Assembly: GCA_964187785.1 (NCBI GenBank)
Contig: OZ076409.1
Location: 61,506,001-61,570,000 of the forward strand
Direction of reading: 5' to 3'
Source of the DNA: Amphiscolops sp. MND2022
Taxonomy: Eukaryota
DNA: 64,000 bases
In this document: piece after piece, positions 5,553 to 44,766 of the stretch
Layout of the letters: the number at the start of each line of letters is the position of its first letter
Position numbering within the stretch: position 1 is the first letter of the stretch
The notes under the pieces: generated by a model
Told to the model about the DNA's origin: nothing
The model's input: only the letters and a program-made list of their open reading frames with translations
The model's database searches: none
Translations under genes and position numbers: made by a program

Positions 5553-7563
5553 TGTGGAAATTTTAGCTTTTGGCGTCCACGAAAGCCCATTGCTTTTGCG
5601 CGAAGTACATACGATAGGCAGAACTATGTTAATCACGTTTTAAAACCCCGGAATGGTGAAAACAGCTGAAAAGGCGAAGTAGGCGTATTTCGTTATTGCT
5701 TTTGGTATACGAATAATAGAAAGAGTAAATTTGATTGTTTGAGCGAAGTAGAAATCGATGTCAACAACGAAACGATTCGAATTGACTAAGTCAGAGTTGA
5801 TCACGGAGAGCGAATTTTGCTAAGTCCCACTTTTGGTCGAAATTATTCTAAGATACACTAGAAAAAACCAATCGTCACAAACGTGGAAACCCCCCCCCAA
5901 ACGGTGTTTCTCAAAGACTATTAATCGTAGAGACCTGAAGTTTGGCACACGTATACCTGAGCTGTTATGCCACTCGCCTATAAAAATGGAACCGAGCCGA
6001 GACCCCCCAGTCCCGGGCTATTAACAATGGAAGTGACCTAGGTCGACCCCCCTACGAACTCATCGGTCAAGCACGGAATAAGTCGTATAACATATGGAAT
6101 GGATAGCCCATATGATATTAAGCCGTTTGCGCATATTTTCGGAACCCTATTGTGTAGGAGGAGCACGGACCCTATGTAAATAAACCCTGAATGTTATGTA
6201 AATAGCCACCAGTTGACCCGAAGATCATGAAACTTGCCTAAGATGTTCACCTAGTACCCCAAAGTAATATACATGAAAGATACATTGATCGACCCACCAC
6301 GCGCGGAGTAATGTTTGTTTAAGGCACGCGGGACCGGACGCGCGGGCCCGACCGACAATAGACATTTGACCTTGGCTTGTAATATCTCAAACGAACCGGA
6401 ATGATCAATGTAGTCGATTTTTAATGTGAGTGAAACCGTATTTACAACCCACGCGGGGGTAACCACTTTAAGTAAACAAACGATACGCATATCATGTAAC
6501 TCAGGAACCATTGACCCTAGGACGATATAACTTGGCATGTAGCGACATTAGATGAGGACTAATAACTTCAAGGTCATCGATGGACCTCAAGGTCATTTTA
6601 GATGCAACCCCGGAAGATATAGGAAAACGTACATTAAAACATGTAAACCAGCGTCTGTAAGTGATAATTTATGCATTTCAGTCAGGCGGAACGATTCGCG
6701 ATGTATTGCACCTAGGATGATTGAAAAGTACCCCTTACGTGCGTAGAACATGTAAACCATGTAGTTGAAGGTCATTGAGCGATTTCGTCGATGTTAAAAA
6801 TATCTCGGGAGACTTGAATTATTATTGAAATGTGAACTTTGTACAACCATTGTTGAAAAACTTGTCGTTGGCGGCAAGGTATGTTTAGTCGAAGTATAAT
6901 TAGACGCGTTCGTCATGCCATAAAAGGAATAGTAAACATGAAGGTAAACACACGCAATCTCAATTCGCCGACGCCCTGGATGTAACGAAAATGTCAAGTA
7001 TGATAGAAAGTGGAGATGAAACCACCCAAAACACGCGCGACGAACAAATATAATTGAGGCGGAATTGCAATATACTTGAATAGACAGAACCGAGTTAGAA
7101 AGTTGGGATCAAGTTGAGTCTCGCGGAGACAAGATACTTGTTCGGATTAACACTCGCGCTTCTCGACAACAGAGTTAGAGGTCTACCAGCAAGTTGAGCC
7201 GTGTGCGGGCAAGAAACTTGGCTAAGCTAAAGAACTCGTTCGTCGAAAAATAGAGTCAGAAATTGAACAAGTCCGGGACTTGTGATTGCACCGTTGACTG
7301 AATCGTGGATTTCAATCTCAACTAGTTGTTATATTGATTTGATAATTATTAAAGAGACTGTCTAGTTATCGCTATTAAAAGTAATTGGATTATTGAATAT
7401 CTCTTTTTGTGATCAATTGAGTGGAGCCGAAGAGCATTGTTTGGAGAGAGAAATTGACAGTAACAACAAAAGAATCAGCTAACTCACTAAAACAACCTTT
7501 TTGTCTGTTAAGCTTCCGATCGGAGGTAAAACTCTCTCCAAGCCCCGAATTGGATTTTTTACA
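5553..7563 (+). repeat. 5' LTR of element A (2011 bp)
   Basis: TGTGGAAATT...TTTTACA; direct repeat of 12155-14156. Confidence 0.92.
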
Positions 7564-7564
7564 G

Positions 7565-7581
7565 TGGCGCTCCTGGGTGGG
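7565..7581 (+). promoter_or_regulatory. Primer binding site, probably tRNA-Asn
   Basis: TGGCGCTCCTGGGTGGG one base after the LTR. Its reverse complement CCCACCCAGGAGCGCCA resembles the metazoan tRNA-Asn 3' end (CCCACCCAGGGACGCCA). Confidence 0.65.
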
Positions 7582-7676
7582 CAACCCTTTTCTTTTTGGA
7601 TGATACTGTGGACGTTTGTCGTTTGTGGACACTGCTAGAGTGAACAGTGGATTTTGCAGAGTTATCAATTTGAGAG

Positions 7677-10292: not shown

Positions 10293-10835
10293 GTTTTTTT
10301 TGGCCAGATTATTATTTACCCGGATCCATATGACCAAAGTAGCTGAATTTCTGCATGGCATAGCATTTGTGTTTTTGGAGGAACGATGTTACAGTATTGA
10401 AGATACAATGTTTTCTGATCGCTGCCTAGAAATAAATGAAAAGTACTTGCAAAAGTTCGTGAATGGTCTTTGTTTTTTTCTCGAGGACCCAACCCAACAG
10501 ACTCTTTTATCTATACACGTTGAGATTACCCTTTTAACTTTTGTTCATCCTAAATTGAAGATCCTAACCTTTTTCTAGGGTGGTGCCCATGAACATACCC
10601 CCACCCTCTCTCTCATAGCCCCTACCCTAGTGCTACTCTCCTTATCGTTTATCACACCACAGATAGACCGCCCTAATCTAAACCGTTTCTCGAGCATTTA
10701 AAGTAGACTCGGCCGATTTATTCCACTGCGCAAATTCCAAAAAGAAAATTGCTAAAATTTATTTCTAGTAGGTAATAGGGATGAAGCGATGATTGATGAA
10801 ATTAGGATGAAAATGATAGTTTTTGTTTATTGAAA

Positions 10836-11132
10836 TTACGAGAGGAAGTCCGGGGGCGTCGTCTGCTTGAAAACGCGTCGGAGTTCTCGTCGAGCCAGCC
10901 GTATTCGGTAGACCTGCCCCTCGACCCTCTCTCCCGGGATGGTTAGACTTGAGAGAAAGAGGGTGAATTCTACCCATCCCGGCGACAGATACTTCAACGA
11001 TAGCTGTTCACCATCTTCCATCGAAATTCTTATATCGTGGCCCCCCTCTATAGTCATGAACCGGGTGGCAAACTCTCTGCGATAAAAAATAGAGTCCCAG
11101 GTTACTCGGATAGCAATGTTTTCGCGGATCAT
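10836..11132 (-). CDS. Small accessory ORF of element A (candidate member of the small-protein family shared with element B)
   Basis: ATG-initiated, 98 aa; IRVTW...IRISM...YLSPGWVEFTLFLSSL pattern resembles 11491-11784 and the element B ORFs. Confidence 0.45.
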   Translation of the reverse strand: MIRENIAIRVTWDSIFYRREFATRFMTIEGGHDIRISMEDGEQLSLKYLSPGWVEFTLFLSSLTIPGERVEGQVYRIRLARRELRRVFKQTTPPDFLS

Positions 11133-11221
11133 GTCCGATGCAAAGCTCGAGATTCAATATTGATAGCAAAAAGGATGAACCAGTAATGAAACTGTTAAAT
11201 GCGCTCGAATTTTGAACGATT

Positions 11222-11482
11222 CTAGCCTACAATGTCGATTTGATATAGAACTCGCAAGTATTTTCTGACCAACTCACAGCAAGATGTTATACAGTAAACA
11301 ACGTCGTGGGCGAGGCAAACACCAAAGGAAACACTTGTTTGTTCTCTAAATAGCTGTCGAAGCAGCCCGTCGAATGAATCCTCACGAGTATTAGAAATTT
11401 GAGTATAAGCATTTTTGTTGGTACGGATAGCAAGTAAAGTTTCGAGTTTGTTAAGTATCAGTAGAGACCGAATATTCGCCAT
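11222..11482 (-). CDS. Small hypothetical ORF in element A internal region
   Basis: ATG-initiated, 86 aa, head-to-head with 11491; no recognisable motif. Confidence 0.3.
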   Translation of the reverse strand: MANIRSLLILNKLETLLAIRTNKNAYTQISNTREDSFDGLLRQLFREQTSVSFGVCLAHDVVYCITSCCELVRKYLRVLYQIDIVG

Positions 11483-11490
11483 TTTGCTTT

Positions 11491-11784
11491 ATGGCTTTTA
11501 TGGGACTGTATATAAGCAAATGGTATTTCCCAAACTGGAATGAGTACGTTCGAGTAGTAAGAATCTTCTGCCTCTTTGACCGGGCACCCATGACGGTCGA
11601 AGTATCCACCGCAGCCCGTAGGCGGGGAGAAGTGGTAATACGCCCGGGAACAGAGGAGTGGAGGAGTCTGTTGGCGCTCCTCCGGGATTATCGAAGAACG
11701 GCGGGTAATCTAAATGCAACAGAGCGGGGGGCGCTCGAAGAACTCAAGGCTTATATGGGGAGTTTTTATAGGCTGACTCAGTAA
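11491..11784 (+). CDS. Small accessory ORF of element A (small-protein family shared with element B)
   Basis: 97 aa, GC-richer than flanks. KWYFP...VRIF...VEV...VIRPGTEEWRSLLALLRDY aligns by eye to 44362-44706 and 42357-42743. Confidence 0.55.
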   Translation: MAFMGLYISKWYFPNWNEYVRVVRIFCLFDRAPMTVEVSTAARRRGEVVIRPGTEEWRSLLALLRDYRRTAGNLNATERGALEELKAYMGSFYRLTQ

Positions 11785-12142
11785 AAAAAATAGTATTCGG
11801 TGTGGTATTTAACGATTTTTGTTATCCAGGTCTTTCAATTTTTTATGACTATTTTTTTAATAACCTACCACATCTATTCGTTTGAAGAGTTTATTTTAAT
11901 TGAGACTCTGGTGTTTTTATCTTCATATGTTGCTTAAACTGCCTATGTTATTGTTTTTTTATATTGGCGCTATACTCTTCAATGTAAACTGTACATATTA
12001 TCAACGATCGGTGATATTTCTTTATTCGGAAATCATTTTGACCAATGCCCAAACCCCCTTCTCCCCAAATTTATGTTCATGTTTAAACCATGCCCCACGA
12101 TTCAGCCAACGACGTTAAGTTTATGCGGGAGAATAAAAGTCC

Positions 12143-12154
12143 AGAAGGCAAGAA
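12143..12154 (+). promoter_or_regulatory. Polypurine tract of element A
   Basis: AGAAGGCAAGAA immediately before the 3' LTR. Confidence 0.55.
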
Positions 12155-14156
12155 TGTGGAAATTTTAGCTTTTGGCGTCCACGAAAGCCCATTGCTTTTG
12201 CGTGAAGTACATACGATAGGCAGAACTATGTTAATCACGTTTTAAAACCCCGGAATGGTGAAAACAGCTGAAAAGGCGAACTAGGCGTATTTCGTTAATG
12301 CTTTTGGTATACGAATAATAGAAAGAGTAAATTTGATTGTTTGAGCGAAGTAGAAATCGACGTCAACAACGAAACGATTCGAATTGACTAAGTCAGAGTT
12401 GATCACGGAGAGCGAATTTTGCTAAGTCCCACGTTTGGTGGATATTATTCTAAGATACACTAGAAAAAACCAATCGTCACAAACGGGGAAACCCCCCCCC
12501 AAACGGTGTTTCTCAAAGACTATTAATCGTAGAGACCTGAAGTTTGGCACACGTATACCTGAGCTGTTATGCCACTCGCCTATAAAAACGGAACCGAGCC
12601 GAGACCCCCCAGTCCCGGGCTATTAACACCGGAAGTGACCTAGGTCGACCCCCCTACGAACTCATCGGTCAAGCACGGAATAAGTCGTATAACATATGGA
12701 ATGGATAGCCCATATGATATTAAGCCGTTTGCGCATATTTTCGGAACCCTATTGCACGTGTAGGAGGAGCACGGACCCTATGTAAATAAACCCTGAATGT
12801 TATGTAAATAGCCACCAGTTGACCCGAAGATCATGAAACTTGCCTAAGATGTTCACCTAGTACCCCAAAGTAATATACATGAAATATACATTGATCGACC
12901 CACCACGCGCGGAGTAATGTTTGTTTAAGGCACGCGGGCCCGACCGACAATAGACATTTGACCGTGGCTTGTAATATCTCAAACGAACCGGAATGATCAA
13001 TGTAGTCGATTTTTAATGTGAGTGAAACCGTATTTACAACCCACGTGGGGGTAACCACCTTAAGTAAACAAACGATACGCATATCATGTAACTCAGGAAC
13101 CATTGACCCTAGGACGATATAACTTGGCATGTAGCGACATTAGATGAGGACTAATAACTTCAAGGTCATCGATGGACCTCAAGGTCATTTTAGATGCAAC
13201 CCCGGAAGATATAGGAAAACGTACATTAAAACATGTAAACCAGCGTCTGTAAGTGATAATTTATGCATTTCATTCAGGCGGAACGATTCGCGATGTATTG
13301 CACCTAGGATGATGGAAAAGTACCCCTTACGTGCGTAGAACATGTAAACCATGTAGTTGAAGGTCATTGAGCGATTTCTTCGATGTTAAAAATATCTCGG
13401 GAGACTTGAATTATTATTGAAATGTGAACTTTGTACAACCATTGTTGAATTACTTGTCGTTGGCGGCAAGGTATGTTTCGTCGAAGTATAATTAGACGCG
13501 TTCGTCATGCCATAAAAGGAATAGTAAACATGAAGGTAAACACACGCAATCTCAATTCGCCGACGCCCTGGATGTAACGAAAATGTCAAGTATGATAGAA
13601 AGTGGAGATGAAACCACCCAAAACACGCGCGACGAACAAATATAATTGAGGCGGAATTGCAATATACTTGAATAGACAGAACCGAGTTAGAAAGCTGGGA
13701 TCAAGTTGAGTCTCGCGGAGACAAGATACTTGTTCGGATTAACACTCGCGCTTCTCGACAACAGAGTTAGAGGTCTACCAGCAAGTTGAGCCGTGTGCGG
13801 GCAAGAAACTTGGCTAAGCTAAAGAACTCGTTCGTCGAAAGTTAGAGTCAGAAATTGAACAAGTCCGGGACTTGTGATTGCACCGTTGACTGAATCGTGG
13901 ATTTCAATCTCAACTAGTTGTTATATTGATTTGATGATTATTAAAGAGACTGTCTAGTTATCGCTATTAAAAGTAATTGGATTATTGAACATCTCTTTTT
14001 GTGATCAATTGAGTGGAGCCGAAGAGCATTGTTTGGAGAGAGAAATTGACAGTAACAACAAAAGAATCGGCTAACTCACTAAAACAACCTTTTTGTCTGT
14101 TAAGCTTCCGATCGGAGGTAAAACTCTCTCCAAGCCCTGAATTGGATTTTCTTACA
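12155..14156 (+). repeat. 3' LTR of element A (2002 bp)
   Basis: Direct repeat of 5553-7563, followed by TSD GCTTA. Confidence 0.92.
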
Positions 14157-15532: not shown

Positions 15533-16204
15533 AGTAGTAGTGGAAATCCCGATACTGGCCAACAAAACGCCAAAAATTGAAAGTCCTCAAAACCATTGAT
15601 TTTAAGGACTTTTTAGAAGACAAATCATCAAAAACAGTGTTTTGCCATGAAGCAAAATTCACTAACCTCTATAGTTTAATGTCAACGTTGCAACCAGCGT
15701 TAATGCACAACCAGCGCTAATGCACAACCAGCGCTAATGCACAACCAGCGTTAATGTACAACCAGCTTTTTAGAAGACAAATCATCAAAAACAGTGTTTT
15801 GCCATGAAGCAAAATTCACTAACCTCTATAGTTTAATGTCAACGTTGCAACCAGCGTTAATGCACAACCAGCGTTAATGTACAACCAGCGTTAATGTACC
15901 GGCGCATACGTTATTCTTATATAACTACAACTAACACATCTTTGTCTCCCATAGCTTAGTGGTTATAGCATTGACTAAAGTTAAGGCTTCGGCCGGAGTG
16001 TTTGGGGTTCACTTCTATCCAACGTCCCCCAGTCTTTGTTACAACTTACATGCTATGGGAGAATAATCACCAATGGCACAGTTCTTAAAAAGGATAATCC
16101 CTGCTGTGGAAACTCTTAGTGCAACGGACTCCCGATGGGCTTTGAGTTTACCATAGGCATGTCAATACAAATAACAATGACATGCCTATGGGTTTTGTAT
16201 TTTT
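15533..16204 (+). repeat. Left TIR of Polinton (internal duplication with 157-bp period, and 17-bp CAACCAGCGTTAATGCA repeats)
   Basis: Reverse complement of 30076-30624 apart from the block starting at 15610, which is repeated at 15767. Confidence 0.9.
15944..16204 (+). ncRNA. Candidate Pol III-transcribed structured RNA in left TIR
   Basis: TATATAA at 15918; A-box TAGCTTAGTGG (15952-15962); weak B-box GGTTCACTTC; C(UUCG)G hairpin 15985-15994; 11-bp stem TCTCCCATAGC/GCTATGGGAGA; 14-bp hairpin, then the first T4-5 runs. Confidence 0.4.
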
Positions 16205-16224
16205 CAACTTTTTCATCTTAATAA

Positions 16225-17040
16225 GTGTATGAAACTCCGTCTCTTCATAAGTTTGGTTCTTCTAGTGAACAGCTAAAACTGAGGGAATATCAGGAGCTAA
16301 AAGATATGATAAAAAGTCAAGAAAAATTAGCCCAAATAACACATTCCAAATTGAAAGAAGATTTGCAACGCGATTTTGAAAATGACATAGAAAATCAAGT
16401 AGAAGAAAAAATGCTAGACGCGGTAGCTATCGCGAAGGCGCATCAAACACTAGACCCACAGGAAATTCAAGATGTTTTAATAAACACAAAGTTAATGAAT
16501 GATATTTATTCCCAGTTTTCAGACATTTCAAAAACCATAAATAAATTAGAACAAAAAATGAAAAAATCTTTCGCCGAACAAAGAACTGCTTTAGTAAATG
16601 AAGTACTAAATTTAATACACAACAATAGTTTTGAAATGTTAACAGTCCGTAATTTAGAGTTTATGAGTCAGGTGGGTCAAGCTGGAATGATTTTAAATGA
16701 AGATGAAGTAATTAATATTCTTAATAGCCTAGATCAAAATAAAATTACTATAACTAACAACATAATTCAACTGCTTTATGACAAAGGTTTGTTCGATTCC
16801 TTTCCCAATAAAGATCAAGCTTTTGCAAATTATCTAACTTTTAGTGAATCCTATTTAAAGGAAAAGTATGGAAAAACAATACCTACTTCAGATGGTGAAT
16901 ATTATCTGTCTGATTTAGAATTTTCTACCAGACAATCAATTCTGGAGTCATTGAAAAAAGACAATTTTAAAGACCTTGTTGATATGAAACACAGAATGAA
17001 ATTAACACCAACGGAAATAAATTTCATTTTATATGATTAA
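16225..17040 (+). CDS. Polinton hypothetical protein (helical/coiled-coil)
   Basis: 271-codon open frame with element-typical codon usage; no recognised domain; start uncertain. Confidence 0.6.
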   Translation: MYETPSLHKFGSSSEQLKLREYQELKDMIKSQEKLAQITHSKLKEDLQRDFENDIENQVEEKMLDAVAIAKAHQTLDPQEIQDVLINTKLMNDIYSQFSDISKTINKLEQKMKKSFAEQRTALVNEVLNLIHNNSFEMLTVRNLEFMSQVGQAGMILNEDEVINILNSLDQNKITITNNIIQLLYDKGLFDSFPNKDQAFANYLTFSESYLKEKYGKTIPTSDGEYYLSDLEFSTRQSILESLKKDNFKDLVDMKHRMKLTPTEINFILYD

Positions 17041-17043
17041 TAA

Positions 17044-17745
17044 TTGGAACAAAAACTCTATCCCTCCCTGACCCCAACGGCCTCTCCCCCCGCACCATAT
17101 GATGTAGAATCAATGATAAATAAGCGATTGCAAAGCGCGTTGCAAAACGAATTACAAAAAGTAAATAGCTTCAATAATTCTATTCAAAACATTAGTCTAA
17201 TGATGAAATATTATGAAATGGAAGAAAAGAAATACAAACAGAAATACAACAAATACAAGCTAATAAATAACCTAATTAACTCCCTCGATGGCATTATAGT
17301 GATTGGAACAACTTCAGCATCAATCTCACTAAGTATTACTGGTGTGGGTATTATAGCTGTTCCAATCGCTGCAGGATTTGGTTGTACAACTGGTATTCTT
17401 GTTAAGATTTGTTCCAGTTATTTGAAGAAAAAGGAGCAAAATTATAAACTTAAGTACACTATTATTCAGAAGACTCTTGACGACTTTAGACAACTTTATG
17501 TTACTAGCCTAAAAGATGATCATATAGATGAAAAAGAATATCACCGATTTGTGACTCAATTTGAAAATTATCAGGTAGCTTCACAGGAAATTCACACAAA
17601 ATCACCCACAGCTTCGCGCACAGCTTCGCATACAAAATCACAAGTAGCTTCACACGCGACAGCTAACGCGGCAGCTACCGCGACAGCTAACACAGCTTCA
17701 CACACACCACCAACAATACCACTTAAACCACACAATTTTTTATAA
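17044..17745 (+). CDS. Polinton membrane-associated protein (LYPSL N-terminus, coiled coil, hydrophobic hairpin; PW/'gasderminX'-like)
   Basis: Hydrophobic Gly-rich segment GIIVIGTTSASISLSITGVGIIAVPIAAGFGCTTGILV between charged helices; TTG rather than ATG start suggests decay. Confidence 0.55.
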   Translation: MEQKLYPSLTPTASPPAPYDVESMINKRLQSALQNELQKVNSFNNSIQNISLMMKYYEMEEKKYKQKYNKYKLINNLINSLDGIIVIGTTSASISLSITGVGIIAVPIAAGFGCTTGILVKICSSYLKKKEQNYKLKYTIIQKTLDDFRQLYVTSLKDDHIDEKEYHRFVTQFENYQVASQEIHTKSPTASRTASHTKSQVASHATANAAATATANTASHTPPTIPLKPHNFL

Positions 17746-17843
17746 TTAATTTATTCAATTTTAACATCAAAAATAAAATAAAAATTAACACCAATAATTG
17801 AAAAATATGCTGCTATTAAATTCATAATTTTATTATAAACAAA

Positions 17844-20800
17844 ATGGAGAACTGCAGTATTTGTAATTCTGATTATAAAAAAGCTTACAAGTCTGATCAT
17901 CCAAAATCAATAAAACATTTACAAAAATTAAATCAATATTATTGTAAAAAATGTAATACATTTATGCCATTGTCTGGCAAGTCTAATCATATAAATTCAG
18001 ATGAACATAAAAACAAAACCAAACAACAACGCGAAGCTACACAAAGTTGGTGTGAAGATTGTGGTAAATATATAAGTAATTCAAGACATTTCCAAAGTGA
18101 AATTCACACGTTCAGAAGTCAAAACAACGCTACAAAAAACACATTTGGTAATACACTACATGATTCTGGAACTAACGTAGAAATAATTGTGAATGAAAAA
18201 ACATACATTAAACTGAGAGTAAAACCAACAAATCATCTTGAAGAACAGATTAATGATTTACTAAAAAAATTACTTTCCCCGATACAAGTTCCAATTGAGT
18301 TATTTAGCTAAGTTTTCAAAAATAGTTAGTGGAGAAGAAATTGTATTTCACAAATGGGTTAAATCAGATTTTAATTACAATCACACGCAGATTGCCTTCG
18401 GCGCAAACCCAAATATTCACAACATATTAATGCAGAAATTAGATGATGAACAATTAGAAGGATCAGGTTTTGTGTTAAACGGTATTGTCAATATTAAATT
18501 AGAAATTTATAAAGTCAATGATATTCAAGCTTCTTCATGGGTTGAGTTGCCAGAAAAATATAAGAATAATAAATCAATTATAAATATAAAAAATGATGAT
18601 CAATTTTGCTTTTTGTGGTGCATCCTAGCACACCTTTTTCCCGTTGAGGATCATAAAAATAGAACATCAAATTATTCAATGCACACGAACAAACTCATTT
18701 TAAATGGTTTAGAATTCCCCATGAAAATTAAAGATATTCCCAAGTTCGAAAACTTAAATAATTTAAACGTAAATGTATTTGAACTCACAAAAACAGTTTT
18801 AACACCAATCCATACCAACACAAACTATGATCAACCACAAATAGATTTATTATTATATCAAAATCACTATTGCTTAATAACAAAATTGCATTGTCTAATA
18901 AATAAGGATTCGCACATGAAATGGGTGTGTAGAAGATGCCTAACTGCATTTAGTTCTGAGGATATTCTCAGTCAACACATTGACCGTTGTCAAAAACAAC
19001 AACCAACTAATATCACATTCAGTTGGAAGGATCACTTAAAGTTCGAAGATTATCATATGAAAGTTCCCATACCAATAAGAGTATATGCAGATTTCGAATG
19101 CATTAATCAACCCACAAATGACCACGAAGCTGTGGTAGCTATCGCGCCCAAAGTATTATTTAAACAAATTCCAATTGCAGTAGGATTTTATATAATTTCA
19201 CCATTTGGTAATAATTACAGCTCATACTTTGGTGAATCGTGTGTAACATGGTTTGTAAATGAAATGTTGACTCTAGAAACATTGCTAGTAACTATTTTGA
19301 AACAAATTTACCTCTTGAAATAACTCCTGAAGAACACCAATCATTTCAACAATCCAAAGTGTGTTGGCTTTGCGAACGAAAGTTAGACGGTGAGGATAAC
19401 GTTCGAGATCATGATCACCTTACAGGCAAGTACCGAGGAGCGGCCCACAACAAATGTAATTTAAATTGTAAAAAAAAAGGTCGAGTTCGTTTGTTCCTAT
19501 ATTTTTCCATAATTTCAGTGGTTATGATTGTCATTTAATTTTTGAAGAACTCTTAACATCAGCTTATAATCTAAAGTTACCAATAAATATTATACCAAAG
19601 TCAATGGAAAATTATGTAAGTGTGCAAGTAGGTTGTTTAAGGTTTTTAGATTCATACAGATTTTTGAGTAGTAGTCTACAAAAACTTATAACATCATTAA
19701 ATGATTTTCCTTATATGCAAAATGAGGGCCTAACTGATGATTTATTTAAGAAAAAACTAGCTTATCCATACGAAAAATTCAATCTTAACAACCTGCATGA
19801 ACCACTAAATCTAACAAAAGAGGACTATTGGTCAACATTAACACAATCTCACCCATGTGAGGATGATATAAAAAGAACCCAACAATTGATTGACACTTAC
19901 AACATTACAACAGCACAAGAACTAACAGAATTGTACTTAAAAATGGATGTACTACAACTCACTGACGTGTTCGAAAACATTGTTGAGAAGTCTACACTTG
20001 AATACGGCATCAATCCTTTGTACAGTTACTCTTTACCTGGTTATACATGGAAAGCTGGTTTAAAACTTACTAAAATTAAATTAGATTATATAAAATGTAA
20101 AGAATTATTATTACTTTTAGAAAACAATATACGTGGAGGAATTTCAAGTGTTATGGGACCCAGATTCATTGAGTCAAATGAAAATACTAAATTACTGTAC
20201 ATTGATGCAAATAACTTGTATGGATGGGCAATGAGTCAATACTTTCCTACTGGAGACTTTAAAAAGATGCGTAGCTTCGCGCAGAACTGTCACGAATCTG
20301 ATTCTGCACTGATGAATGAAATTACAGAAGACATTTTGAATACACCAGATGACAATGAATTTGGATACTTTATAGAATGTGATTTAGAATATCCAGCAGA
20401 AATTAAAGAAAAAACCGAAAACTTTCCACTTTGTCCTTATCAAACAAAAGCCGATCCAAATCTTTTCTCAGAATACATGAACGGTGTAAAACAATCCAAC
20501 TACAAACCAACCGAGAAACTTATGTGTGACCTAACAAATAAATATAATTATATGATGCACTACAGGATGTTCAAGATTTACACCCAGATCGGGATGAAAG
20601 TAACAAAGATTCACACAATCTACCGGTTCAAACAATCACTTTGGTTAGAAAAATACATTAATCATAACACACAAAAACGCACCAAAGCAAAAACAAACTT
20701 TGAGAAGGACCTCTACAAATTAATGAACAACGCTTTCTTTGGTAAGACTATGGAAAATGTTAGAGACCGGACTAATTTAGAGTTTATCCCTCACACCAAT

Positions 20801-21682
20801 GTTGATCAAATAATAAAAAGACAATCGAAGTTAAGCTTTAAAGGAATTAATAATCATTACTCCGAATTCAGTGTTTACAAGTTTGATAAGGAAAAAGTAA
20901 TTTTTGATAAACCAATATACTTGGGGTTTAGTGTTTTAGAACTGAGTAAATTGTTAATGTATGAGTTTTATTATCACAAATTACAACCATATTATAACAA
21001 TAAAATTAAACTGCATTACATGGATACAGACTCATTCATTCTAAGTATTAAAACTGGAGACCTTATAAATGATTTGGAATACTTCAAAGATGATTTTGAT
21101 TTCAGCGAGCTCGACCCAAGTCATGAGTTGTACAACTCAATCAACAAGAAAGTTATAGGTAAAATGAAAATAGAAACATCACCAATTATTGAATTAGACA
21201 ACTTCGTAGCTTTGAGATCTAAATCATATTCTTTTAGCTATGGAAGCACAGTTCAGAAAGCAACGCAAAAGCTAACACAAAAGTCAAAACAAAAAGGAAT
21301 ACAACATACACCAATTTATTCACAATTTATAAATTCATTATTTAACTCTGAAACAACAACTGCAACTAATTATTCTTTTAGAAGTAATGCTCACAACTTA
21401 ACTGTTCAGAAACAAGATAAGCTAGCTTTGAATCCTTTTGATGACAAGCGTATGTACTTGAATCCAATACAAAGTTTATCATGGGATAAACACACACAAA
21501 AAGGTGATTGTCCTTGTATACTTTGTATAAAATTAGTTGGCTTGTATTACACCGAACCGAGCACAAGGGATGGCAAGCCAATTCGGGATGAAGAAATATA
21601 CTATAACATTTGGACTCTGAAAGAAAAACTGAATCATCAACAGCTTTTAAATCTGATAAGTGATCGGGCCCATTTATTGTGA
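17844..21682 (+). pseudogene. polB: Protein-primed family B DNA polymerase (pPolB), frameshifted
   Basis: Three N-terminal C2H2 fingers; OTU-like DDQFCF...HY; exonuclease YADFE/HNFSGYD; EndoVII-like VRDHDHLTGKYRGAAHNKCN; polymerase motifs YIDANNLYG, KLMNNAFFGK, YMDTDS. Frameshifts near 18290, 19280 and 19475. Confidence 0.93.
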
Positions 21683-21849
21683 TAACTATCGTGACGCACA
21701 GCTTCGCGATAGCTTTTGCGATAGCTTTCACACACATCTTTTATAATTAGAAATATCATTTATTATCATCATTTATTATAATATTAGCATTATCATTTAT
21801 CATCATTTATAATTATTAATCTATGATTCATCATTCCTCTCATATCAAA

Positions 21850-23097
21850 TCAAATGAGGTCAAAATGCCTTTGCCCATCACTACTAATACTTATTAATTT
21901 TGGGGTTAATACAAGTGCATAAGCTATATAATCTGCTACATCAATGGCAGCATTAAATTTAAATTCTAAACGGATTGGTTGACTCGCAATGATATCCCTT
22001 TGTTTGCTGAGGTCAAATACATAAAAATTACAATTTGTTCTGAATTTGTTCAAATCAATAAATGGATTTAGTAAGTTAATTTCACTATTCTAGTGATAAA
22101 AGTTTTCAATTTCACTATATACTTGATCATATTTGTCGCGGTCGTAATCACATTCTATCCCATCATTGGGATATTTTTCTGATCCTATTTTACAAACAGC
22201 ATTACTAATTGGCAACCGGTCAAACACTGCATTATCATGAACCTGAGAATCAATTTTATTTCTAGCTTGAAATCCAACAATCACAAAAGTTGGACAGGTC
22301 TGCGCAGCTTCGCTGCCTGAGCTGCCTAATTCAAATGTCCAATTCGAATTCGTTTTAACATCTTTTCTAAAAATAATTCGTTCCGTGTAACTCAATTCGG
22401 TTGGATTTTTATTTAGAATTTGGTCCATGACAAGTTGTTGGTTTTCGATACTGGGAACATAGTGTGGGATATACCAACCAATGTCTTTAATAACCACTTT
22501 TGCAGCATCCACTCCAACACTTCTTAAAATGGCGTCATTGTTAGTGTTCCGTTTGAGAGTTAATGTGTAGCCCAAACCGTAAGTTATTTTTTCTTGATCA
22601 GCAAATCCAAACAAGTCTTTTAGTTTTATTCTCACAAAAAAGGTTCCTTTCTCATTTTTGTTGTTTGATAGTTCTTGTCTTCTTATAGTAGTATCTTCTT
22701 CAAACCCATATATTAATTGACTTGTGGATTTAGTGCTTGTTAGAAGTTTATACATTAAAGAAATCAAGTGCAAATTGTCAACTTTTTCTTGGTGTTTCCC
22801 ACTAGAAGTTGTTAATTTGGCTTCACTAAATAGAGATATTGGCCCAAAGTTAACCAATCCAATTTCATCACCGTTGGTGTATCTTGAGTCGTTGTTTTTA
22901 AGTACTTCAAATTCTAGACTTATGAAACTATTTTGTAAACATATGTATGCATCTTCTCTTGGGAAACTAATTGTAGTATTCGAGTTTGTATTGTTAATTG
23001 TCGCCAAACTACTTGGACTATACTTTATGAAATCAATTTTATGATTAGGTTTTTCAAGAGTGTATTTATTTTTTAAAGAAAACATATCTGTGTTCAT
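21850..23097 (-). pseudogene. Major capsid protein (double jelly-roll), one in-frame stop at 22090-22092
   Basis: ORFs 22090-23097 and 21850-22053 are in the same frame; beta-rich pattern with C-terminal FYVFDLS...IRLEFKF typical of Polinton MCP. Confidence 0.75.
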
Positions 23098-23134
23098 TTA
23101 TAATAAAAAAATTATTGTGAAACTACGTGGAACA

Positions 23135-24049
23135 CTACTCAAATTTGTGGAAAATATTCATACTTTCTAACGTTTTGTTGTTAGAGTCAAAGTCGAATAT
23201 GCTTCTTAAAAGTTCTTGTTCATAGTATTTTCCTTGAATAATTTCTCCGTTTTCATCATTTAGAGTGTATGTTACTGGGTTTGTTTTGTTGATGCTGTGT
23301 ATTTTAAAAAGTTCTCTATTCCAATTTGTTGTATAACCTTTTGAATAAATGTTCCTTTTGTCGGGAACTCTTACAAAATCTCCCACTTGGAATTTAGGTA
23401 ATTTATTGATATGATTATTATTATCATTTTTGGGTATCAGATTGGGCGAAGCTGCGGTAGCTGTCGCGCGCGAAGCTGCACAAAAACTCATTTCAAAAGG
23501 TGTCATTTTTGTTGTACCATGCACCCTATTATTATACTTATCCAAAGCAGCATCAAGGTGATTCAACCAGTTACCTTTACCCTCAATATACATTGGTTCT
23601 TTGATTAAGTCCAGAAGTGTTCTATTGAAACGTTCAACAAAAACAGCCTTCAAATCTGAATTAGTTGAATAAATTTGAATGTTTTGCTCTTTTAAATAGT
23701 GTAAAAATGTTGTGTTGTAAAACTCTTTACCTCTATCACTCCAAATTTTGTGTGGTTTTCTCTTCTCTTTTTCAATGAGACTTTTTATTGCAGTAGTTGT
23801 ACTTTTTCCTGATTAATCTTTGAGGGGACCCGCCCATGCATATTTGGTATGATTGTCAATTATTGTGAAAATAAACTTGTAGTTTTTGTTGTATTTGCTT
23901 AAGTTTGAGCGATCAATTAAATCGATACTCCAACATTCATCTTTATAGTGAGTTTGTATTTGAATTCTTTGAAACTTCTTGATTACAGGAGAGAATGTTT
24001 CTTTAGCAATCTGCTCTTTGCGAAGCTCCGCCTTTTGATTCATGTTCAT
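23135..24049 (-). pseudogene. Retroviral-type (rve) integrase, one in-frame stop at 23813-23815
   Basis: WSIDLID, IDNHTKYAW, WSDRGKEF (read through the stop), VERFNRTL give the DDE triad; C-terminal KFQVGDFVR...KGYTTNW. Confidence 0.92.
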
Positions 24050-24242
24050 TTATAACAATTTTTTATAAATAAATGAATAATGATTATTGCTTGCAGAGCT
24101 ACAGAAATAAATATCAAGGTGAAGGAGCCGGCGCGAAAGCTAGCGCGGGAGGTGGCGCGGGAGCTGGCGCGGAGCTGGCGCGGGAGCTGGCGCGGCCAAT
24201 TGGTATCAGAAAACACGAATTTATAAAGTAATCACAAATCCT

Positions 24243-25313
24243 ATGTTTATTGTATGTTTAAATATATTTATAGGTATTATTGTTGTAATATATTGGAATT
24301 ATATTCGTCCTAGACAGTTTAAAACAATTTATAAAAAACTACTACAATTTGCAGGGTTCAAATACTCTCATCTGACAAACCAGGAACGCGAAGCCCCCCA
24401 GGATACACGCGAAGCTACGCACAACAACAACTCACATAACAATTCTCATTGCAACGCGCATTTCATAATTTATGGTAGTAGTGGCTCTGGGAAGACAAGT
24501 TTTTTAAAGCATTATTTGGCACAAGTTGCAGAGCTTCGCCAAAGAAATTACGTAGTTTTCGGGCGAGATGAACGTGAGTTTCCCTCTCAAAGTTTTGTAC
24601 CACTACTGCAGTTGGAGAAAGTTAGTATTGAATCACTTACTAATAAAATTGTTGTACTGGATGATGCAGGTGCATACAAAAGTCTTAAAACAAAAGTAGA
24701 AGACCTTTTCCGATTTGGTAGACACTTGGGGATTCAAGTGATATACCTTGCTCACTATGCAAAGGATGTTCTTCCAATCGTGAGGGAAAATTGCTTCAAA
24801 ATATACTTAACAATTAATAACCCAGATAACTTCTTCGAGTCGATTGTACAAACTTATGCATTAGCTTCCGCGATCAAAGACGGGTTTAATTGGAAATACT
24901 ACCGCGATCTGTTAGAATATGGTATAATTGAATTTGACACAAGGAGTCAGAAATACAAGGTATTAAACAACAAGCACAACTTAATTTATGATTCGAGCAA
25001 ACGAACTAAATGGGGTCCAGAACAACTTGTTGCTTATGAAAGTTACTTTTTCACTGGTGATGAATACAACAAACTCAAAACTTTCTTAGAGGAAATGTCC
25101 GACCAGACAATTGAAATAACACCACTCAACATAGCTTATTATTATGTAGCATATTGCAAACAAAATAATATTAAAGTAAATGAATCCAAAATAGACAACT
25201 ACGTTGAGCGTATGCAAAAACCACTAATTAGTGATTCAGTTAAAGAGGACGTCAAGAAGGTAATTTATGATCATGCAAAAAATTTTACTAAAAATAAGCT
25301 AAATATTGTTTAG
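24243..25313 (+). CDS. A32/FtsK-like P-loop ATPase #1 with N-terminal hydrophobic segment
   Basis: Walker A GSSGSGKT, Walker B VVLDD, GRH, VREN; intact 356-aa ORF. Confidence 0.8.
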   Translation: MFIVCLNIFIGIIVVIYWNYIRPRQFKTIYKKLLQFAGFKYSHLTNQEREAPQDTREATHNNNSHNNSHCNAHFIIYGSSGSGKTSFLKHYLAQVAELRQRNYVVFGRDEREFPSQSFVPLLQLEKVSIESLTNKIVVLDDAGAYKSLKTKVEDLFRFGRHLGIQVIYLAHYAKDVLPIVRENCFKIYLTINNPDNFFESIVQTYALASAIKDGFNWKYYRDLLEYGIIEFDTRSQKYKVLNNKHNLIYDSSKRTKWGPEQLVAYESYFFTGDEYNKLKTFLEEMSDQTIEITPLNIAYYYVAYCKQNNIKVNESKIDNYVERMQKPLISDSVKEDVKKVIYDHAKNFTKNKLNIV

Positions 25314-25604
25314 TAATTATTTAGTGATTAGTGATTATTTAGTGATTATTTAGTGATTCTTAGTGATCTCTAAATTTCTCTAAATTCCTCTAAGAATCAC
25401 TAAGGTTTCACTAAGAGCATTTATTTTCACTAAATATAATCGCTATAATTCGCTATAATCTTTAATCTTAGAGAAATAAATACTCTTAGAGACACTTAGT
25501 GAAACCTTAGTGATTTAGTGAAATTTGCTTAGTGACTACATAGTGATTACATAGAGATTACATAGTGATACTGAGTGATTCTTAGAGGAATTTAGTGATT
25601 TTTT
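25309..25604. repeat. Intergenic TAGTGATT-rich region with nested inverted repeats
   Basis: Perfect 21-bp IRs at 25395-25415/25495-25515 and 25381-25401/25574-25594. Confidence 0.75.
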
Positions 25605-25613
25605 ACTAAACAA

Positions 25614-26621
25614 ATGAATTGCTCAATTTGTAATAAAAGTAGTGAAAAAAGTTTGTGTGATGATTGTAGAAATAAAAAAAGATGTAAGGAATGTAATATT
25701 ATGAAGAATTGTAATACTTTTTATTCATACAAAAATGGTAAAATGTACAATTCATGCAAAGTGTGTTTTAATAAAAAGGTGAGGTGTGAATTTTGTGGTG
25801 AGAAAGTTATTTAAGGTCACACATCAAGAAGCAACACTTGTATCAGCATTATAATCGCGCGAAAGCTGCCGCAGGAGCATTCGCAGCTTCGCACACAACT
25901 GCACAGATTCGCACAAATATTAATACCGGGGGTGACTTGCTTCCCACACAGCTTCGCGATAGCTACCGCAAAATGATGATAATGCGGGAGCTAACGCGGG
26001 AGCTAATGCTAATAGTGGTGTGAACGAAACTAATAGAACATTAATAGTTGGCCCATCATTTTGTGGTAAAACTCATTTGTTGTTGAATAAATTACGATTG
26101 ATTCGTTTGGAAGATCCAGAGAAACAAATTCGTATCATTACAAGGAGTCCAGAACAATATGAGGATGTGGAGCTTTATATTCAAGGAATAGAAGTGGAAG
26201 AAAATGTGGGGGGTTTGGAAGAGTATAGGGGGTGTTGTGTAGTATTTGATGATATGTTAGACTCCAACCAGAAATTGATTGATCCATTTTTTACTAGGGG
26301 AAGACACAAATCTTGTGATGTTTATTATTTATGTCAGAGTTATTTTGATGCACCAAAAAAACAGTTAGGAACAATTCGAATATAATAATTTTATTTCAAC
26401 AAACACTGAAAGATGTAGAACATATTCATAGGGACATATCAGGTTTTGATATGTCTTATGAGGAATTCAAAAGTGTGTGCAGAGAAGCATGGAACGAAAA
26501 ATTCAACTACCTTTTAATAAACAGATTGGAAGATAAAAAAGGGAGTAGGTACAGGGTTTGTAATGAATCTAATCCAAATTACAAGATCTTTAATCCACAA
26601 ACTGATCCTTTAAGTAATTAG
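25614..26621 (+). pseudogene. Zinc-finger region plus A32-like packaging ATPase #2, frameshifted
   Basis: CxxC-rich N-terminus (25614-25840); GPSFCGKT, VVFDD, GRH, LCQ; after a frameshift at the A-run near 26356 it continues TVRNNSNIIILFQQ to a stop at 26619-26621. Confidence 0.75.
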
Positions 26622-26637
26622 GGACTTCGTGAGGAGA

Positions 26638-27690
26638 TTAGGAGATCAAGTTGCTTCGTATATTTTGGTTTTGAGAAGGTGATATGCATTCATACTCCAA
26701 TAACTTGTCTATAATTGCAATAATTTGTTCATTAATTAAAAAACTATCATTTTCTCCAACTTTTGCAAAATAAAGTAGTTTCAATTGATCCACTAATTCG
26801 TCTGGGTCAGATGGGAGGAAAATGTACTGTTGTGAATATTCGCGATAGCTTTCGCGATAGCTTTCGCCATTTAATCCACTTCCTGTGAAGCCCTGTGATT
26901 GGCCCTGTGCGAAGCCCTGCAAATCATGTGCTTTTGTGTAGCCCTGTGCGAAGCCTTGCGTGTAGCCCTGCAATTGATAGCGAGAGTATAATTCTTTAAT
27001 AAATTGATGTCTGATTGATTTTTAATCTCCATAATTTAGATCATATTTCATATCATTTAAGAAGTTATAAATTGAGTCCCAGTTATTTATTTGTTTGTCA
27101 AATTGTGTATTAGTTATAAAATATTGAAGATCTGGGTTACTAAGATCATATGAATTCCCATTCTCGAAAATCATTGTTGAACCTTTAATTAGTACTTGTT
27201 GTGGGTTATGGGGATTAATTGTGAATAAATTAGGATTGTCTTGTGCGAAGCTCTACGTAATTGGTTCTAAACTAAATTGACTTTTGTTTTTGTCATTAAG
27301 TAAATTAGAAACTGTTTTTACAATACTAGAATCAACCTTGTTGGAATTAACAAGACTTGTAAGAAGCTGATTATTATGATTTGTAACTTCATTATATTGT
27401 TTTATTCCTTCTTTAAAAGAATTTTGAAGAGTATTATTATTGTGTTCTATTGCTTTTGTCTGATTTTCAATTGCTTGTGTAACCCCTTGGGTTTGTTTGT
27501 CAATGGCTTGTAGTTGTTTTTCATTTGATTCCACCTGTTTTATAGTGACAGGTTCAAAAGTTTCTTCAAGGTCATAATGAAAGTCTTGCTTCCCTAGTTT
27601 CTCTTTTAATCTTTCTTTGCGTACTGAAGATTTTGTTTCTTGTAATTTTTTTAATTTTTCCAAGTCATCTTGGGTGTGAATTGAATACAT
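26638..27690 (-). pseudogene. Conserved Polinton protein with GSGL site and C-terminal LPSDPDELVDQLKLL motif; two in-frame stops
   Basis: ORFs 27253-27690 and 26638-26973 are in frame, with stops at 27253 and ~27023; the DPxELVDxLxLL motif is recurrent in Polinton ORFs. Confidence 0.6.
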
Positions 27691-27703
27691 TTATTAAGTA
27701 TAA

Positions 27704-28210
27704 TTAGTGGATTTTCCCCAGATACAGGCCTTTACTATTAGTTCTTGCTTTTCTGTTTGTGTTGCTTGTGTTAGCTGCTTTGCTGCCTGCTTTGCTGCCT
27801 TTACTCGACAAACCTTCAGCTTTGTATAACCCCTTCCCTTGATGAACCAATTTAATAACGTCAGGGGCAGTTGCGGCAATTAATCGTGGATTTTTACTTG
27901 CTGCTGCAGTTCCAATATTTGCTGCTAATTCTAGTGCGCGGCCTGGATTATTGAGTATTTTCTTTCCAACATTTTTGGCTGCAGAACCTAAATGTTTGAA
28001 AAAGTCTCCCAATCCTTCCCCATCTATTGTTCGTTCAGATACAATTAGACTCTTATTTCTGTTACATATCATGCAGTTGCCACGTAATGTGTGTACGGGC
28101 CTGCCCATCTGTATCCCAGTGTTTGTAATTTCTCCATGAATATTTGTGGTGGGAGAATAATGTTTTCCACCAACACAATATGAATTATTCATAAATTTAT
28201 TATAACCCAT
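27704..28210 (-). CDS. Putative virion core/membrane-lytic protein (Zn-ribbon-like N-terminus, GEG site, amphipathic helix, basic tail)
   Basis: YCVGGKH...CMIC; DGEG followed by LGDFFKHLGSAAKNVGKKIL; Lys/Ala-rich C-terminus. Confidence 0.5.
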   Translation of the reverse strand: MGYNKFMNNSYCVGGKHYSPTTNIHGEITNTGIQMGRPVHTLRGNCMICNRNKSLIVSERTIDGEGLGDFFKHLGSAAKNVGKKILNNPGRALELAANIGTAAASKNPRLIAATAPDVIKLVHQGKGLYKAEGLSSKGSKAGSKAANTSNTNRKARTNSKGLYLGKIH

Positions 28211-28277
28211 TTATTAGAAAAAAATTATCATTTTTGTGGAGCTTCGTGAAAGCTATCGCGAAAGCTATCGCCCAACA

Positions 28278-29341
28278 TCATATTTTAATAATTTGAATTG
28301 TGAAGGTGAGTGTCTTCCCGTTGAAATCAACTGAATCATGATTAGAGTCCTCAAGGAAAAATTGAATGGTGTCCAGTCGTGTTTTGTTAATTGATTTGTA
28401 CGAAACAGTTGTGGGTTCTTTTATAATTTTATATCCGGGAGGTGCGCTTAAATTGAAAGAAAATAAAGTTTGTTCTCGTATACCATTAACAATTGAACCA
28501 TCTACACAGTCGCACTTCAGATGAACTTTGTCGGTGGTTGTTATCATGACTGGTTTTTCTGAAGTGTGAGTTCCGGATGGGTAATCACGTTGTGTAAAAC
28601 CCAGGACTTTGTTAAGTTTGGAGATAAAATGAATAGGGTTTGAGGTTGTTAAAACTGATTTCATCGATATTGTGTCGGGTATTATGTTGAATTCAATACT
28701 AAAAACTGTAAGATCCTTTTTGAATTTTGACTTATCATCTAATTCATAACCTGAATCAGTAATTATTTGTTTTATGGTATTATTTATTTCAGTCAGTTCG
28801 TATACACCTGGAACTAAATTTATATCAATAAACTCATTCTCAATTTCAAAGTTTGGAATAGTTATAGGAATGTTGCTCTTCATTTGCTTTAAATAGTCAA
28901 AACCTTTTTTTGGAAGTTTCTTCTTTTTTTTTATAACTAGTAAGTAAATATATATTAGCTTTTTCTATAAATTCATAGTAAAGTTTATTATTTTCTAAAT
29001 CGTAAGTTTCAAATAGTTTTTTTTATATTTGGCACCACTCCCGTGTCAAACTCAAGTGCATCGAGTTGTCGATCATTTAGAATAATCTGTAGTTTGTTAT
29101 TGCTGTTAGTGATATTATAAACTGTATTGTATACTTCTAAACTTGTTACTCCCATCATCCATTTTTCATTTAACGTGAGAGGAACATCGAATGAGAAAGA
29201 TTCTTTTTGTTTAGTCATTTTAAATTCTAGAGTTTCTTGTGGTTTAGAATGAGTATTTTCAACAATTTCTTGATTAGATTTTGCAATACTTAAAAGAAGA
29301 GATTCTTTTTTATTATAAGTTACGAAGGTGGATAGATCCAT
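28278..29341 (-). pseudogene. Minor capsid (penton) protein, frameshifted
   Basis: N-terminal FDVPLTLNEKWMMGVTSLEVYNTVYNI; C-terminal VHLKCDCVDGSIVNG...PPGYKIIKEP...VDFNG. Confidence 0.8.
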
Positions 29342-29344
29342 TTA

Positions 29345-29581
29345 TTATAGATTAAATTGTTTGAATCCACTAGCGGAAATGTTATTTATAAATTCTTGCC
29401 TATCTTTTGATAATGTTTTCTTATGCGATAGCTTCCGCAAATTTATTGTATTTTTTCCATGATTTTGATTTTGATTGTGAAGCTGTTCTGTGGAGCTGTG
29501 CGTGAAATTTTGTGCGTTAGCTGTCGCAAAGCTGCGCGAGATAATTTTATATTGAGTTGAATAATTATTAATTTTCTTCAT
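29345..29581 (-). CDS. Small Polinton ORF between protease and penton
   Basis: 78-aa ORF whose start overlaps the protease stop and which ends 3 nt before the penton ATG. Confidence 0.4.
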   Translation of the reverse strand: MKKINNYSTQYKIISRSFATANAQNFTHSSTEQLHNQNQNHGKNTINLRKLSHKKTLSKDRQEFINNISASGFKQFNL

Positions 29582-30000
29582 TTATTAAGTTTGAAAGTTT
29601 GGTAGTATAAATTTAGTACTGCATTTTTGAACCCAATTTTATTTGTGAGATACAGTGTGTATAAACAATACGCCGCGCAATAACTGTCGTTTGTCTGAAT
29701 TTGATATTCTGGATAAATACCATTTTTAATATGATTAAGTATATTAAATGGAGGTGGGCATCCATATGAATCAAAATAATTTTGATTTGTAAACATAACC
29801 CAGTGTGTTCCCACTGAGGGATGTAAGTTAACTATACCACTGGTAGTGGTAAATTTATCATCTCTCATGTATATTCCACACTCTGTTATGTTCATGAGTT
29901 TTAAGATTTCTTTTATTTTTACATTGGAAGTTGCTTCGTTTTTTAATCCATATTTTTCAGCAAAGTCTTTGAATGAGAGATAATTGCGAAGCTGTGCCAT
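29578..30000 (-). CDS. Adenain-like cysteine (maturation) protease
   Basis: GTHWV, YFDSYGCPP, QIQTNDSYCAAYC supply the H/D/Q/C catalytic set. Confidence 0.88.
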   Translation of the reverse strand: MAQLRNYLSFKDFAEKYGLKNEATSNVKIKEILKLMNITECGIYMRDDKFTTTSGIVNLHPSVGTHWVMFTNQNYFDSYGCPPPFNILNHIKNGIYPEYQIQTNDSYCAAYCLYTLYLTNKIGFKNAVLNLYYQTFKLNK

Positions 30001-30075
30001 TTATTAGTTATTTTTCATTGTTGTGTATTAATGTTATGTGATGCTGCGCGTGGCTAAACTTATTTCCCATGTGGT

Positions 30076-30624
30076 AAAAATACAAAACCCATAGGCATGT
30101 CATTGTTCTTTGTATTGACATGCCTATGGTAAACTCAAAGCCCATCGGGAGTCCGTTCCACTTAGAGTTTCCACAGCAGAGATTATCCTTTTTAAGAACT
30201 GTGCCATTGGTGATTATTCTCCCATAGCATGTAAGTTGTAACAAAGACTGGGGGACGTTGGATAGAAGTGAACCCCAAACACTCCGGCCGAAGCCTTAAT
30301 TTTAGTAAATGCTATAACCACTAAGCTATGGGAGACAAAGATGTGTTAGTTGTAGTTATATAAGAAGAACGTATGCGCCGGTACATTAACGCTGGTTGTA
30401 CATTAACGCTGGTTGTGCATTAGCGATGGTTGTGCATTAGCGCTGGTTGTGCATTAACGCTGGTTGCAACGTTGACATTAAACTATAAAGGTTAGTGAAT
30501 TTTGCTTCATGGCAAAACACTGTTTTTGATGATTTGTCTTCTAAAAAGTCCTTAAAATCAATGGTTTTGAGGACTTTTAATTTTTGGCGTTTTGTTGGCC
30601 AGTATCGGGATTTCCACTACTACT
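30076..30624 (-). repeat. Right TIR of Polinton (contains second copy of candidate Pol III RNA, 30076-30336 minus)
   Basis: Reverse complement of the left TIR, ending ACTACTACT. Confidence 0.9.
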
Positions 30625-32472: not shown

Positions 32473-32536
32473 CTGATTGGCTGAACGAAAAACAGGCCAA
32501 TCAGGCACTTCGGCAGAAGTGCTGAACCGTTTTTAT
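32473..32536 (+). promoter_or_regulatory. Candidate LTR promoter: inverted CCAAT boxes and TATA-like element
   Basis: CTGATTGG (32473) and CCAATCAG (32497), then TTTTATA (~32530); same in the 3' LTR. Confidence 0.4.
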
Positions 32537-42349: not shown

Positions 42350-42356
42350 CCTTACC

Positions 42357-44706: not shown

Positions 44707-44766
44707 ATCTTCACAAATAGTTGAAGTTAGTCTCTTTCAAATACTCTTCATAGGCACTCTTTTTCT

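Follow-up and report, generated by a model that had tools for sequence, protein, structure and literature searches.

The window analysed here, a 64,000-nt stretch of contig OZ076409.1 from Amphiscolops sp. MND2022, contains a Polinton/Maverick element of 15.1 kb with AGT-repeat termini, bordered on either side by identical 6-bp flanks that form a target-site duplication (Table 1). Pfam searches identified a double jelly-roll capsid (E 5e-14) and an A32 ATPase (E 1e-7) among its proteins, as well as an integrase-like ORF with a weak rve match that fell below the cut-off (E 0.007). The polymerase ORF had no match in Pfam; from its motifs we take it to be pPolB, and its relatives include 14 in viral contigs at 31–35% identity. 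The element thus has the TIRs with AGT termini, the 6-bp duplication, and the capsid, A32 ATPase, integrase, and polymerase genes by which Polintons/Mavericks are recognized. A protein search with ORF1, the first gene at the left end, returned only relatives without a name. The inner part of the inverted-repeat arm (15848-16204) pairs with 30076-30432 at 97% identity, with its inner limit at 16204/30076, and holds the subject of this study, a candidate RNA unit lying ~400 bp from the Polinton terminus.

Other repeats in the window include a 16.9-kb LTR retroelement (about 31900-50600) encoding gag, protease, RT/RNase H, and integrase, in which ORF 45113-46673 matches a Monjiviricetes-type fusion glycoprotein, ORF 47704-48753 matches a MATH-domain protein, and both LTRs contain 47-bp repeat arrays. 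Direct repeats 6.6 kb apart (about 5550-13230) surround an 871-aa ORF (7677-10292) with no Pfam match, and nested small MITE-like inverted-repeat elements with internal repeats of 17–27 bp occupy 2271-4026. The 15-kb Polinton contains the 8-letter motif GCGAAGCT, in this or the complementary form, 15 times, and the other 49 kb of the window contain it once; elsewhere, we counted 149 occurrences in 133 kb of family-A Polinton ends, 18 in 180 kb of a sister family, B, and 0 in 40 kb of host loci. It occurs as short insertions, hairpin loops included, and contains GCGAAGC, a very stable DNA mini-hairpin.

Table 1 Positions of the Polinton, its left TIR, and the parts of the RNA unit within the window
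Feature	Position	Strand	Description	Basis
Polinton/Maverick element	15533..30624	.		TIRs, 6-bp flanks, Pfam capsid and A32 ATPase
Left TIR	15533..16204	+	Outer part, 17-bp repeats; inner part, RNA unit	Inverted-repeat arms
TATA-like box	15918..15924	+	Between-subfamily similarity starts here; upstream columns mixed beyond about -27	
Constant ~120-nt core	15944..16063	+	tRNA-like 5' end, P1-P4, possible pseudoknot	Pair counts, divergence
Stem P1	15945-15955/16052-16062	+	11 bp	
A-box	15952..15962	+	Full match to TRGCNNARYGG	
Stem P2	15961-15970/16037-16046	+		
Stem P3	15973-15976/16031-16034	+		
Small hairpin P4	15985-15994	+		
Possible pseudoknot	within 15995-16030	+	Compatible with the copies; no repeated double change	
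B-box-like stretch	16006..16016	+	Without invariant A58	
3' domain	16064..16150	+	Two predicted stem-loops; window subfamily only	Fold, divergence
Terminal hairpin	16151..16191	+	Stem kept; loop 2-62 nt among copies	
T4 and T5 runs, predicted Pol III terminator	16193..16204	+	Inner end of TIR	
Second copy of unit, right TIR	30076..30362	-	+1 at 30336; inward, toward protease-like ORF	

An earlier note on this DNA had proposed, from the letters alone, an adenovirus VA-RNA-like Pol III gene in both TIRs. The two inward-pointing copies that it described are there, differing at 6 of 287 positions, and so are all the elements it listed: TATATAA starts 26 nt before G15944, the A-box matches its consensus in full, and the B-box is weak as claimed, with C where tRNAs carry the invariant A58. 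The 11-bp long-range stem was confirmed, as was the 14-bp hairpin (16151-16164/16178-16191), and the first T-runs, T4 at 16193-16196 and T5 at 16200-16204, come at the end of the arm; the 230 nt free of T4 are not significant alone, since 28% of shuffles are equally T4-free. The C(UUCG)G tetraloop is present at 15987-15992 but is not conserved: of 43 distinct copies, 22 have UUCG and 19 have UUCA.

A 22-letter motif of the unit has 445 exact matches in the genome, and a control motif has 0. Among the first 100 of these matches, 62 form 31 inward-facing pairs less than 40 kb apart, 26 of them at a spacing of 9–15 kb, and the remaining 38, which include the window copy, are all directly followed by Polinton ORFs, with the outer TIR upstream in 36. 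DNA searches yielded 695 and 671 candidate loci; all 30 fetched loci run on into Polinton end sequence, and Polinton proteins were matched at 26 of 30 divergent loci. The unit is confined to Polinton ends. The possibility that it is an ordinary tRNA-derived SINE scattered through the genome, which the earlier note had held open against its own proposal, was rejected because none of the first 100 exact copies (of 445) lies away from a Polinton end.

Within these ends, the unit is under stronger constraint than the Polinton protein genes. Divergence from the window copy was 1.4% in the core and 1.6% in the 3' domain among 25 of the 38 unpaired copies, those covering ORF1; the same copies diverge by 3.7% at second codon positions and by 4.6% at four-fold sites, and their outer TIR by 7.8%. 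The core value becomes about 1.7% after removing the 22 positions fixed by the motif search, and the comparisons share the window reference and so are not independent. The 26 nt upstream of +1 diverge by 20%, and the constrained unit therefore starts at G15944. In run X1, a contig matching 15963-16161 only is 92% identical to the unit (16 differences in 199 nt) and a piece of ORF1 is 84% identical (54 differences in 347), although the two contigs need not derive from one element.

The unit folds with a z score of -5.99, and none of 200 shuffles was as stable. In 55 distinct copies, P1 is 96% paired, compared to 38–49% for slid controls, and changes on both sides were found at pairs 7-119 (15) and 8-118 (9) of P1 and 31-91 (8) of P3; here the 5' variants had been chosen by pattern, their 3' partners had not. 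The covariation score of these copies was reached by none of 500 shuffles, in a test where relatedness of the sequences can beat shuffles even if there is no structure; by number of doubly changed pairs, the copies did not exceed shuffles (64/500). The tree of copies is too poorly resolved for counting independent compensations. Among P1 cells in 67 of 73 copies, the other six being dropped for want of an anchor, 642 were Watson-Crick, 71 G-U, 10 A-C, and 14 other; G-U cells far outnumber A-C cells (71 vs 10), and the inward strand is therefore indicated. In the X1 contig, P1 carries two double changes as well as two wobbles, the terminal hairpin is retained at 11 bp under a new loop, and a T-run is also present. 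This evidence comes from a single contig of uncertain kind at depth 3.25 and shows no start, end, or strand of an RNA.

In the terminal hairpin, 463 cells were Watson-Crick, 23 G-U, 4 A-C, and 16 other (46 copies), and frequent variants preserve pairing; a count that placed a T4 run after this hairpin in 46 of 46 copies was discarded because its anchor contained the T-run. In two copies (L055 and L159), one stem of the 3' domain has gained matching insertions in both of its strands. Of 53 copies, 18 break one pair of P2 and 23 break another, and RNAalifold favours a 3-bp tRNA D-stem over it, with most of the long model lost. The alignment and model used here (A2 and R2) replaced a first pair (A1 and R1), in which misplacement of the 3' strand had made the model poor. 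The window copy also folds as DNA (z -4.98), and its opposite strand folds too (z -3.76). Overall, there is good support for a structured inward-strand RNA, and the stems are kept with compensating changes in related elements, as the earlier note's proposal demanded.

A second subfamily retains the core and has its 3' part replaced by tandem 48-bp units, 2–9 of them in 14 copies, with a fifteenth array extending past the locus. Each 48-nt unit is predicted to form a hairpin of 14 bp, among which three G-U pairs are near-fixed, and the loop is GNRA in 68 of 79 units; 15 of the 26 loops other than GAAA remain GNRA, compared to the one third expected from single changes. The 7-mer CTTAGTG of the core recurs in the 48-nt unit and also at 16115-16121. 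A copy of this type (L049) folds with z -5.7 as RNA and z -1.5 as DNA. Although not homologous to the 3' part it replaces, the array is still followed by a T-run within 15 nt in 9 of 14 copies, and T4 density is 1.0/kb within the array vs 12.6/kb in the next 300 nt. Only the ~120-nt core is constant across subfamilies: the ~250-nt RNA that had been proposed fits one of them, whereas the constant part is this core, with exchangeable 3' modules behind it. Two ends of one element 15.5 kb apart (L198 and L199) carry the same rare 5' variant and different 3' modules, which suggests copying between TIRs that runs inward from the end with variable reach.

Of 73 copies, 51 have the TATA pattern at -26, and the A-box, which occupies its tRNA position, matches the consensus in 69, with 43 of the 73 selected by a pattern over the A-box. 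The B-like 11-mer, which starts 54 nt after the A-box start, is identical in 57 of 73 copies; a canonical B-box was found in none of the 73, A58 being absent in every copy, nor on either strand of the window's TIR regions. This stretch can pair instead with 15995-16000 and may be conserved as an RNA helix strand rather than as a promoter. In 35 of 38 position-ordered copies, the first T4 falls between +239 and +287. The B-boxes of host tRNA genes are canonical, and these genes end at T4-T6, those for Lys and Arg lacking a TATA. Four of eight host U6 genes start after TTC, as do most unit copies, and these four have a TATA-like stretch near -30.

ARAGORN found no tRNA genes in the window and no cloverleaf for the unit, and Rfam gave no RF00005 match at E<=10 for the unit region and nothing near the gathering score for the window region or four divergent loci. 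The first 27 nt of the unit resemble the 5' half of a tRNA, including a 3-bp D-stem that is invariant, and their scores against several host tRNAs exceed those of shuffles; the weak scores for Lys-type, Ser, and Leu genes are similar, and no donor isotype stands out among those sampled. The unit probably originated from a tRNA gene. Among other host sequences, two isolated tRNA- or SINE-like heads (L161 and L162) have a D-arm one letter from that of the unit, the latter scoring 18.9 bits (E 0.2) against model R2. U6 genes (L163-L166) lie in tail-to-tail pairs 60 bp apart, tRNA-Lys, tRNA-Arg, and tRNA-Ser genes form large tandem arrays (L077-L106, L206-L230), and one Ser/Leu tRNA motif has 1879 genome matches. 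Reading ACTAAC...TAG at the unit start as a branch point and splice acceptor was set aside, as P1 spans it, and spliced-leader RNA and telomerase RNA were likewise considered and set aside.

The unit is not shared by Polintons in general. The genome also contains a sister family, B, with a polymerase 70–75% identical, a different gene order, and the same ORF set as family A, and no match to the unit was found in nine of its elements; one family-A element carries the unit at one end only. In family B (L141-L158), the polymerase and capsid block is inverted relative to the window's element and TIRs are about 90–290 bp. A pattern scan of viral contigs gave 0 matches, and one of metagenomes gave 4, three of a tRNA gene and one unrelated. 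Model R2, applied to 18 family-B stretches and to 15 IMG/VR loci, of which many may stop short of Polinton termini, yielded one 17-bit match (E 0.48) and nothing else. The unit looks like a lineage-specific gain. We found no Polinton non-coding RNA in print among titles and opening parts of abstracts; in PMC8502044, 'non-coding' does not occur, and its one 'tRNA' passage is unrelated.

Counting a possible role in cis, it is rather probable, judging by sequence, that Pol III makes the unit as a stand-alone RNA. The fuller model, which we prefer at about even odds, is that the unit is a tRNA-derived Pol III gene whose RNA is a decoy for host RNA-binding defences. Transcription would start near G15944 from a hybrid promoter consisting of the TATA-like box, the perfect A-box, and the weak B-box, as in EBER genes, and would stop at the first T-run, giving ~250 nt here and ~280–550 nt in the repeat subfamily. 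The ~120-nt core would form an interrupted ~25-bp stem under a junction, and the 3' part would provide short imperfect hairpins, variable in number and sequence, as in a sponge. Location in the TIRs would give two copies per genome, homogenised between ends, and the abundant RNA would tie up host RNA-binding defence proteins as a structural decoy, with Dicer/RNAi, a dsRNA sensor, or another RNA-binding protein as the target, which is the least certain step. PKR is not a favoured target, because it needs ~30 bp and because it is, to our knowledge, confined to vertebrates. The length requirement is given in PMC7589676. We infer the decoy function by analogy, because viral Pol III RNAs, as exemplified by the VA RNAs, act through dsRNA mimicry (PMC6599070) and because hairpin arrays of variable number would suit a sponge. 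More tentatively, we propose that Polintons, independently of adenoviruses, may have evolved a Pol III decoy RNA gene with exchangeable, expandable hairpin arrays, and that this gene might combine a constant tRNA-derived core with a place in both TIRs and hundreds of genomic copies.

In the main rival reading, which we consider rather unlikely, the TATA-like box serves Pol II, and the mRNAs of the first gene at either Polinton end (ORF1 and the protease-like ORF) would share the unit as a structured 5' leader that works like an IRES or as a translational switch. Every pairing result is compatible with such a leader, both unit copies aim at ORFs, and in the window the T-run ends ~20 nt upstream of the ORF1 frame and 76 nt upstream of the protease-like ORF, so that a further promoter would hardly fit; the TATA-like box at -26 in 51 of 73 copies and the non-canonical B-box also fit it. 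Yet 9 and 10 upstream ATGs precede the first long ORF at the two ends, and the first ORF match shifts among copies, between about +276 and +981, with the T-run remaining tied to the last hairpin's end. The leader would also have to accommodate family B, which has the same ORF set without the unit, and the family-A element with a unit at one end, and it does not explain a perfect A-box at the tRNA position. If Pol III does transcribe the unit, its RNA could act in cis or on the element's own proteins instead of as a decoy, aiding packaging, replication, or chromatin, e.g., through TFIIIC-bound ends that insulate against silencing. The presence of the unit in both ends is in keeping with this role, as are the small-RNA-derived promoters in terminal repeats of other mobile elements (PMC10886601), but family B elements exist without the unit, and a role as promoter only would leave unexplained both the hairpin arrays and the paired changes that lie 100 nt from the boxes; we regard a cis role as improbable.

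We consider it highly improbable that the structure works only in the single-stranded DNA of strand-displacement replication and never as a functional RNA. The TIR location, the DNA fold of the window copy (z -4.98), and the enrichment of a short palindromic motif in the Polinton (15 in 15 kb vs 1 in 49 kb) would agree with a DNA role, but the DNA fold of the repeat-type copy is not beyond chance (z -1.5; RNA, z -5.7), its hairpins depend on the three near-fixed G-U pairs, and neither the A-box and T-runs nor the distance of about 400 bp to the terminus is explained. It is scarcely credible, and already largely refuted, that the unit is what remains of a decayed tRNA or SINE, a passive passenger of the TIRs: the tRNA-like first 27 nt, with their invariant 3-bp D-stem and above-shuffle host tRNA scores, are what a remnant would leave, but conservation exceeds that of second codon positions, paired changes accumulate, and none of the first 100 exact copies (of 445) is off a Polinton end. 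The interpretation offered in the earlier note is partly supported. It stands as to a structured inward-strand RNA, and transcription by Pol III is likely: the A-box, the start boundary, and the T-runs agree with it, but the B-box is never canonical.

Adenoviruses and other dsDNA viruses of eukaryotes have Polintons close to their root, and little is known of how Polintons handle host defence. With a conserved structured RNA gene in their ends, Polintons would join the groups that have viral Pol III RNAs (VA, EBER, TMER), and if our more tentative proposal is true, this gene would be the first non-coding RNA gene of a Polinton and its first counter-defence based on RNA, and would indicate that Polintons fight host RNA sensing as active viruses. 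The RNA unit offers a cheap test of Polinton activity, and one genome provides a natural comparison between a sister family, which lacks the unit, and the two 3' architectures in which it occurs. Even as a leader, it would be an undescribed structure controlling Polinton genes.

Among known systems, tRNA-derived SINEs share the tRNA-like 5' end and the A-box but are dispersed, unlike the unit, which lies at a Polinton end in every one of the first 100 of 445 copies. MHV68 TMERs differ from the unit, which has no cloverleaf and whose 3' stems, at 11–14 bp, are shorter than pre-miRNA stems. They share with it hairpins behind a tRNA-like head (PMC8223928). EBV EBERs are likewise viral Pol III units, with promoters in which an upstream TATA-like box is added to the A and B boxes, an arrangement predicted for the unit; both EBERs and TMERs belong to mammalian herpesviruses and not to a Polinton (PMC8223928). 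The TRIMp3 elements Cassandra, Helenus, and Ajax carry a Pol III promoter derived from small RNA genes, as predicted for the unit, in both terminal repeats, and the Helenus type has tRNA-derived terminal-repeat sequence (PMC10886601), to which the tRNA-like 5' 27 nt of the unit may correspond, although no single donor isotype stands out among those sampled. They are, however, non-autonomous LTR retroelements with direct repeats, in which conservation centres on promoter motifs and the promoter makes genomic RNA (PMC10886601), whereas the unit resides in the inverted repeats of an autonomous DNA element and its RNA structure is selected. The element here is not an LTR element with PBS and PPT, its inverted repeats enclosing Polinton genes, and the main text of PMC10886601 contains neither 'Polinton' nor 'DNA transposon'.

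The closest comparison is with adenovirus VA RNAI/II, non-coding units of a linear dsDNA virus of the same broad lineage, which have box A within the terminal stem, a T4 terminator, wobble-rich helices, and a proposed tRNA origin in common with the unit (PMC7589676, PMC6599070). There is no sequence or Rfam match between them, and the unit is not a member of the VA RNAs by box B, terminator position, or apical stem: its box B is defective (0/73 canonical), its first T4 lies about 120–170 nt beyond P1 in 35 of 38 copies, and it lacks the long apical stem and the GGGU-ACCC tetrastem, with no ACCC in 15944-16204. Whereas VA RNA genes lie beside L1, the unit lies in TIRs with modular 3' arrays. 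The likeness to VA RNA that the earlier note had claimed holds only as an analogy, since the defining VA features fail, and by that analogy the unit may work like a VA RNA.
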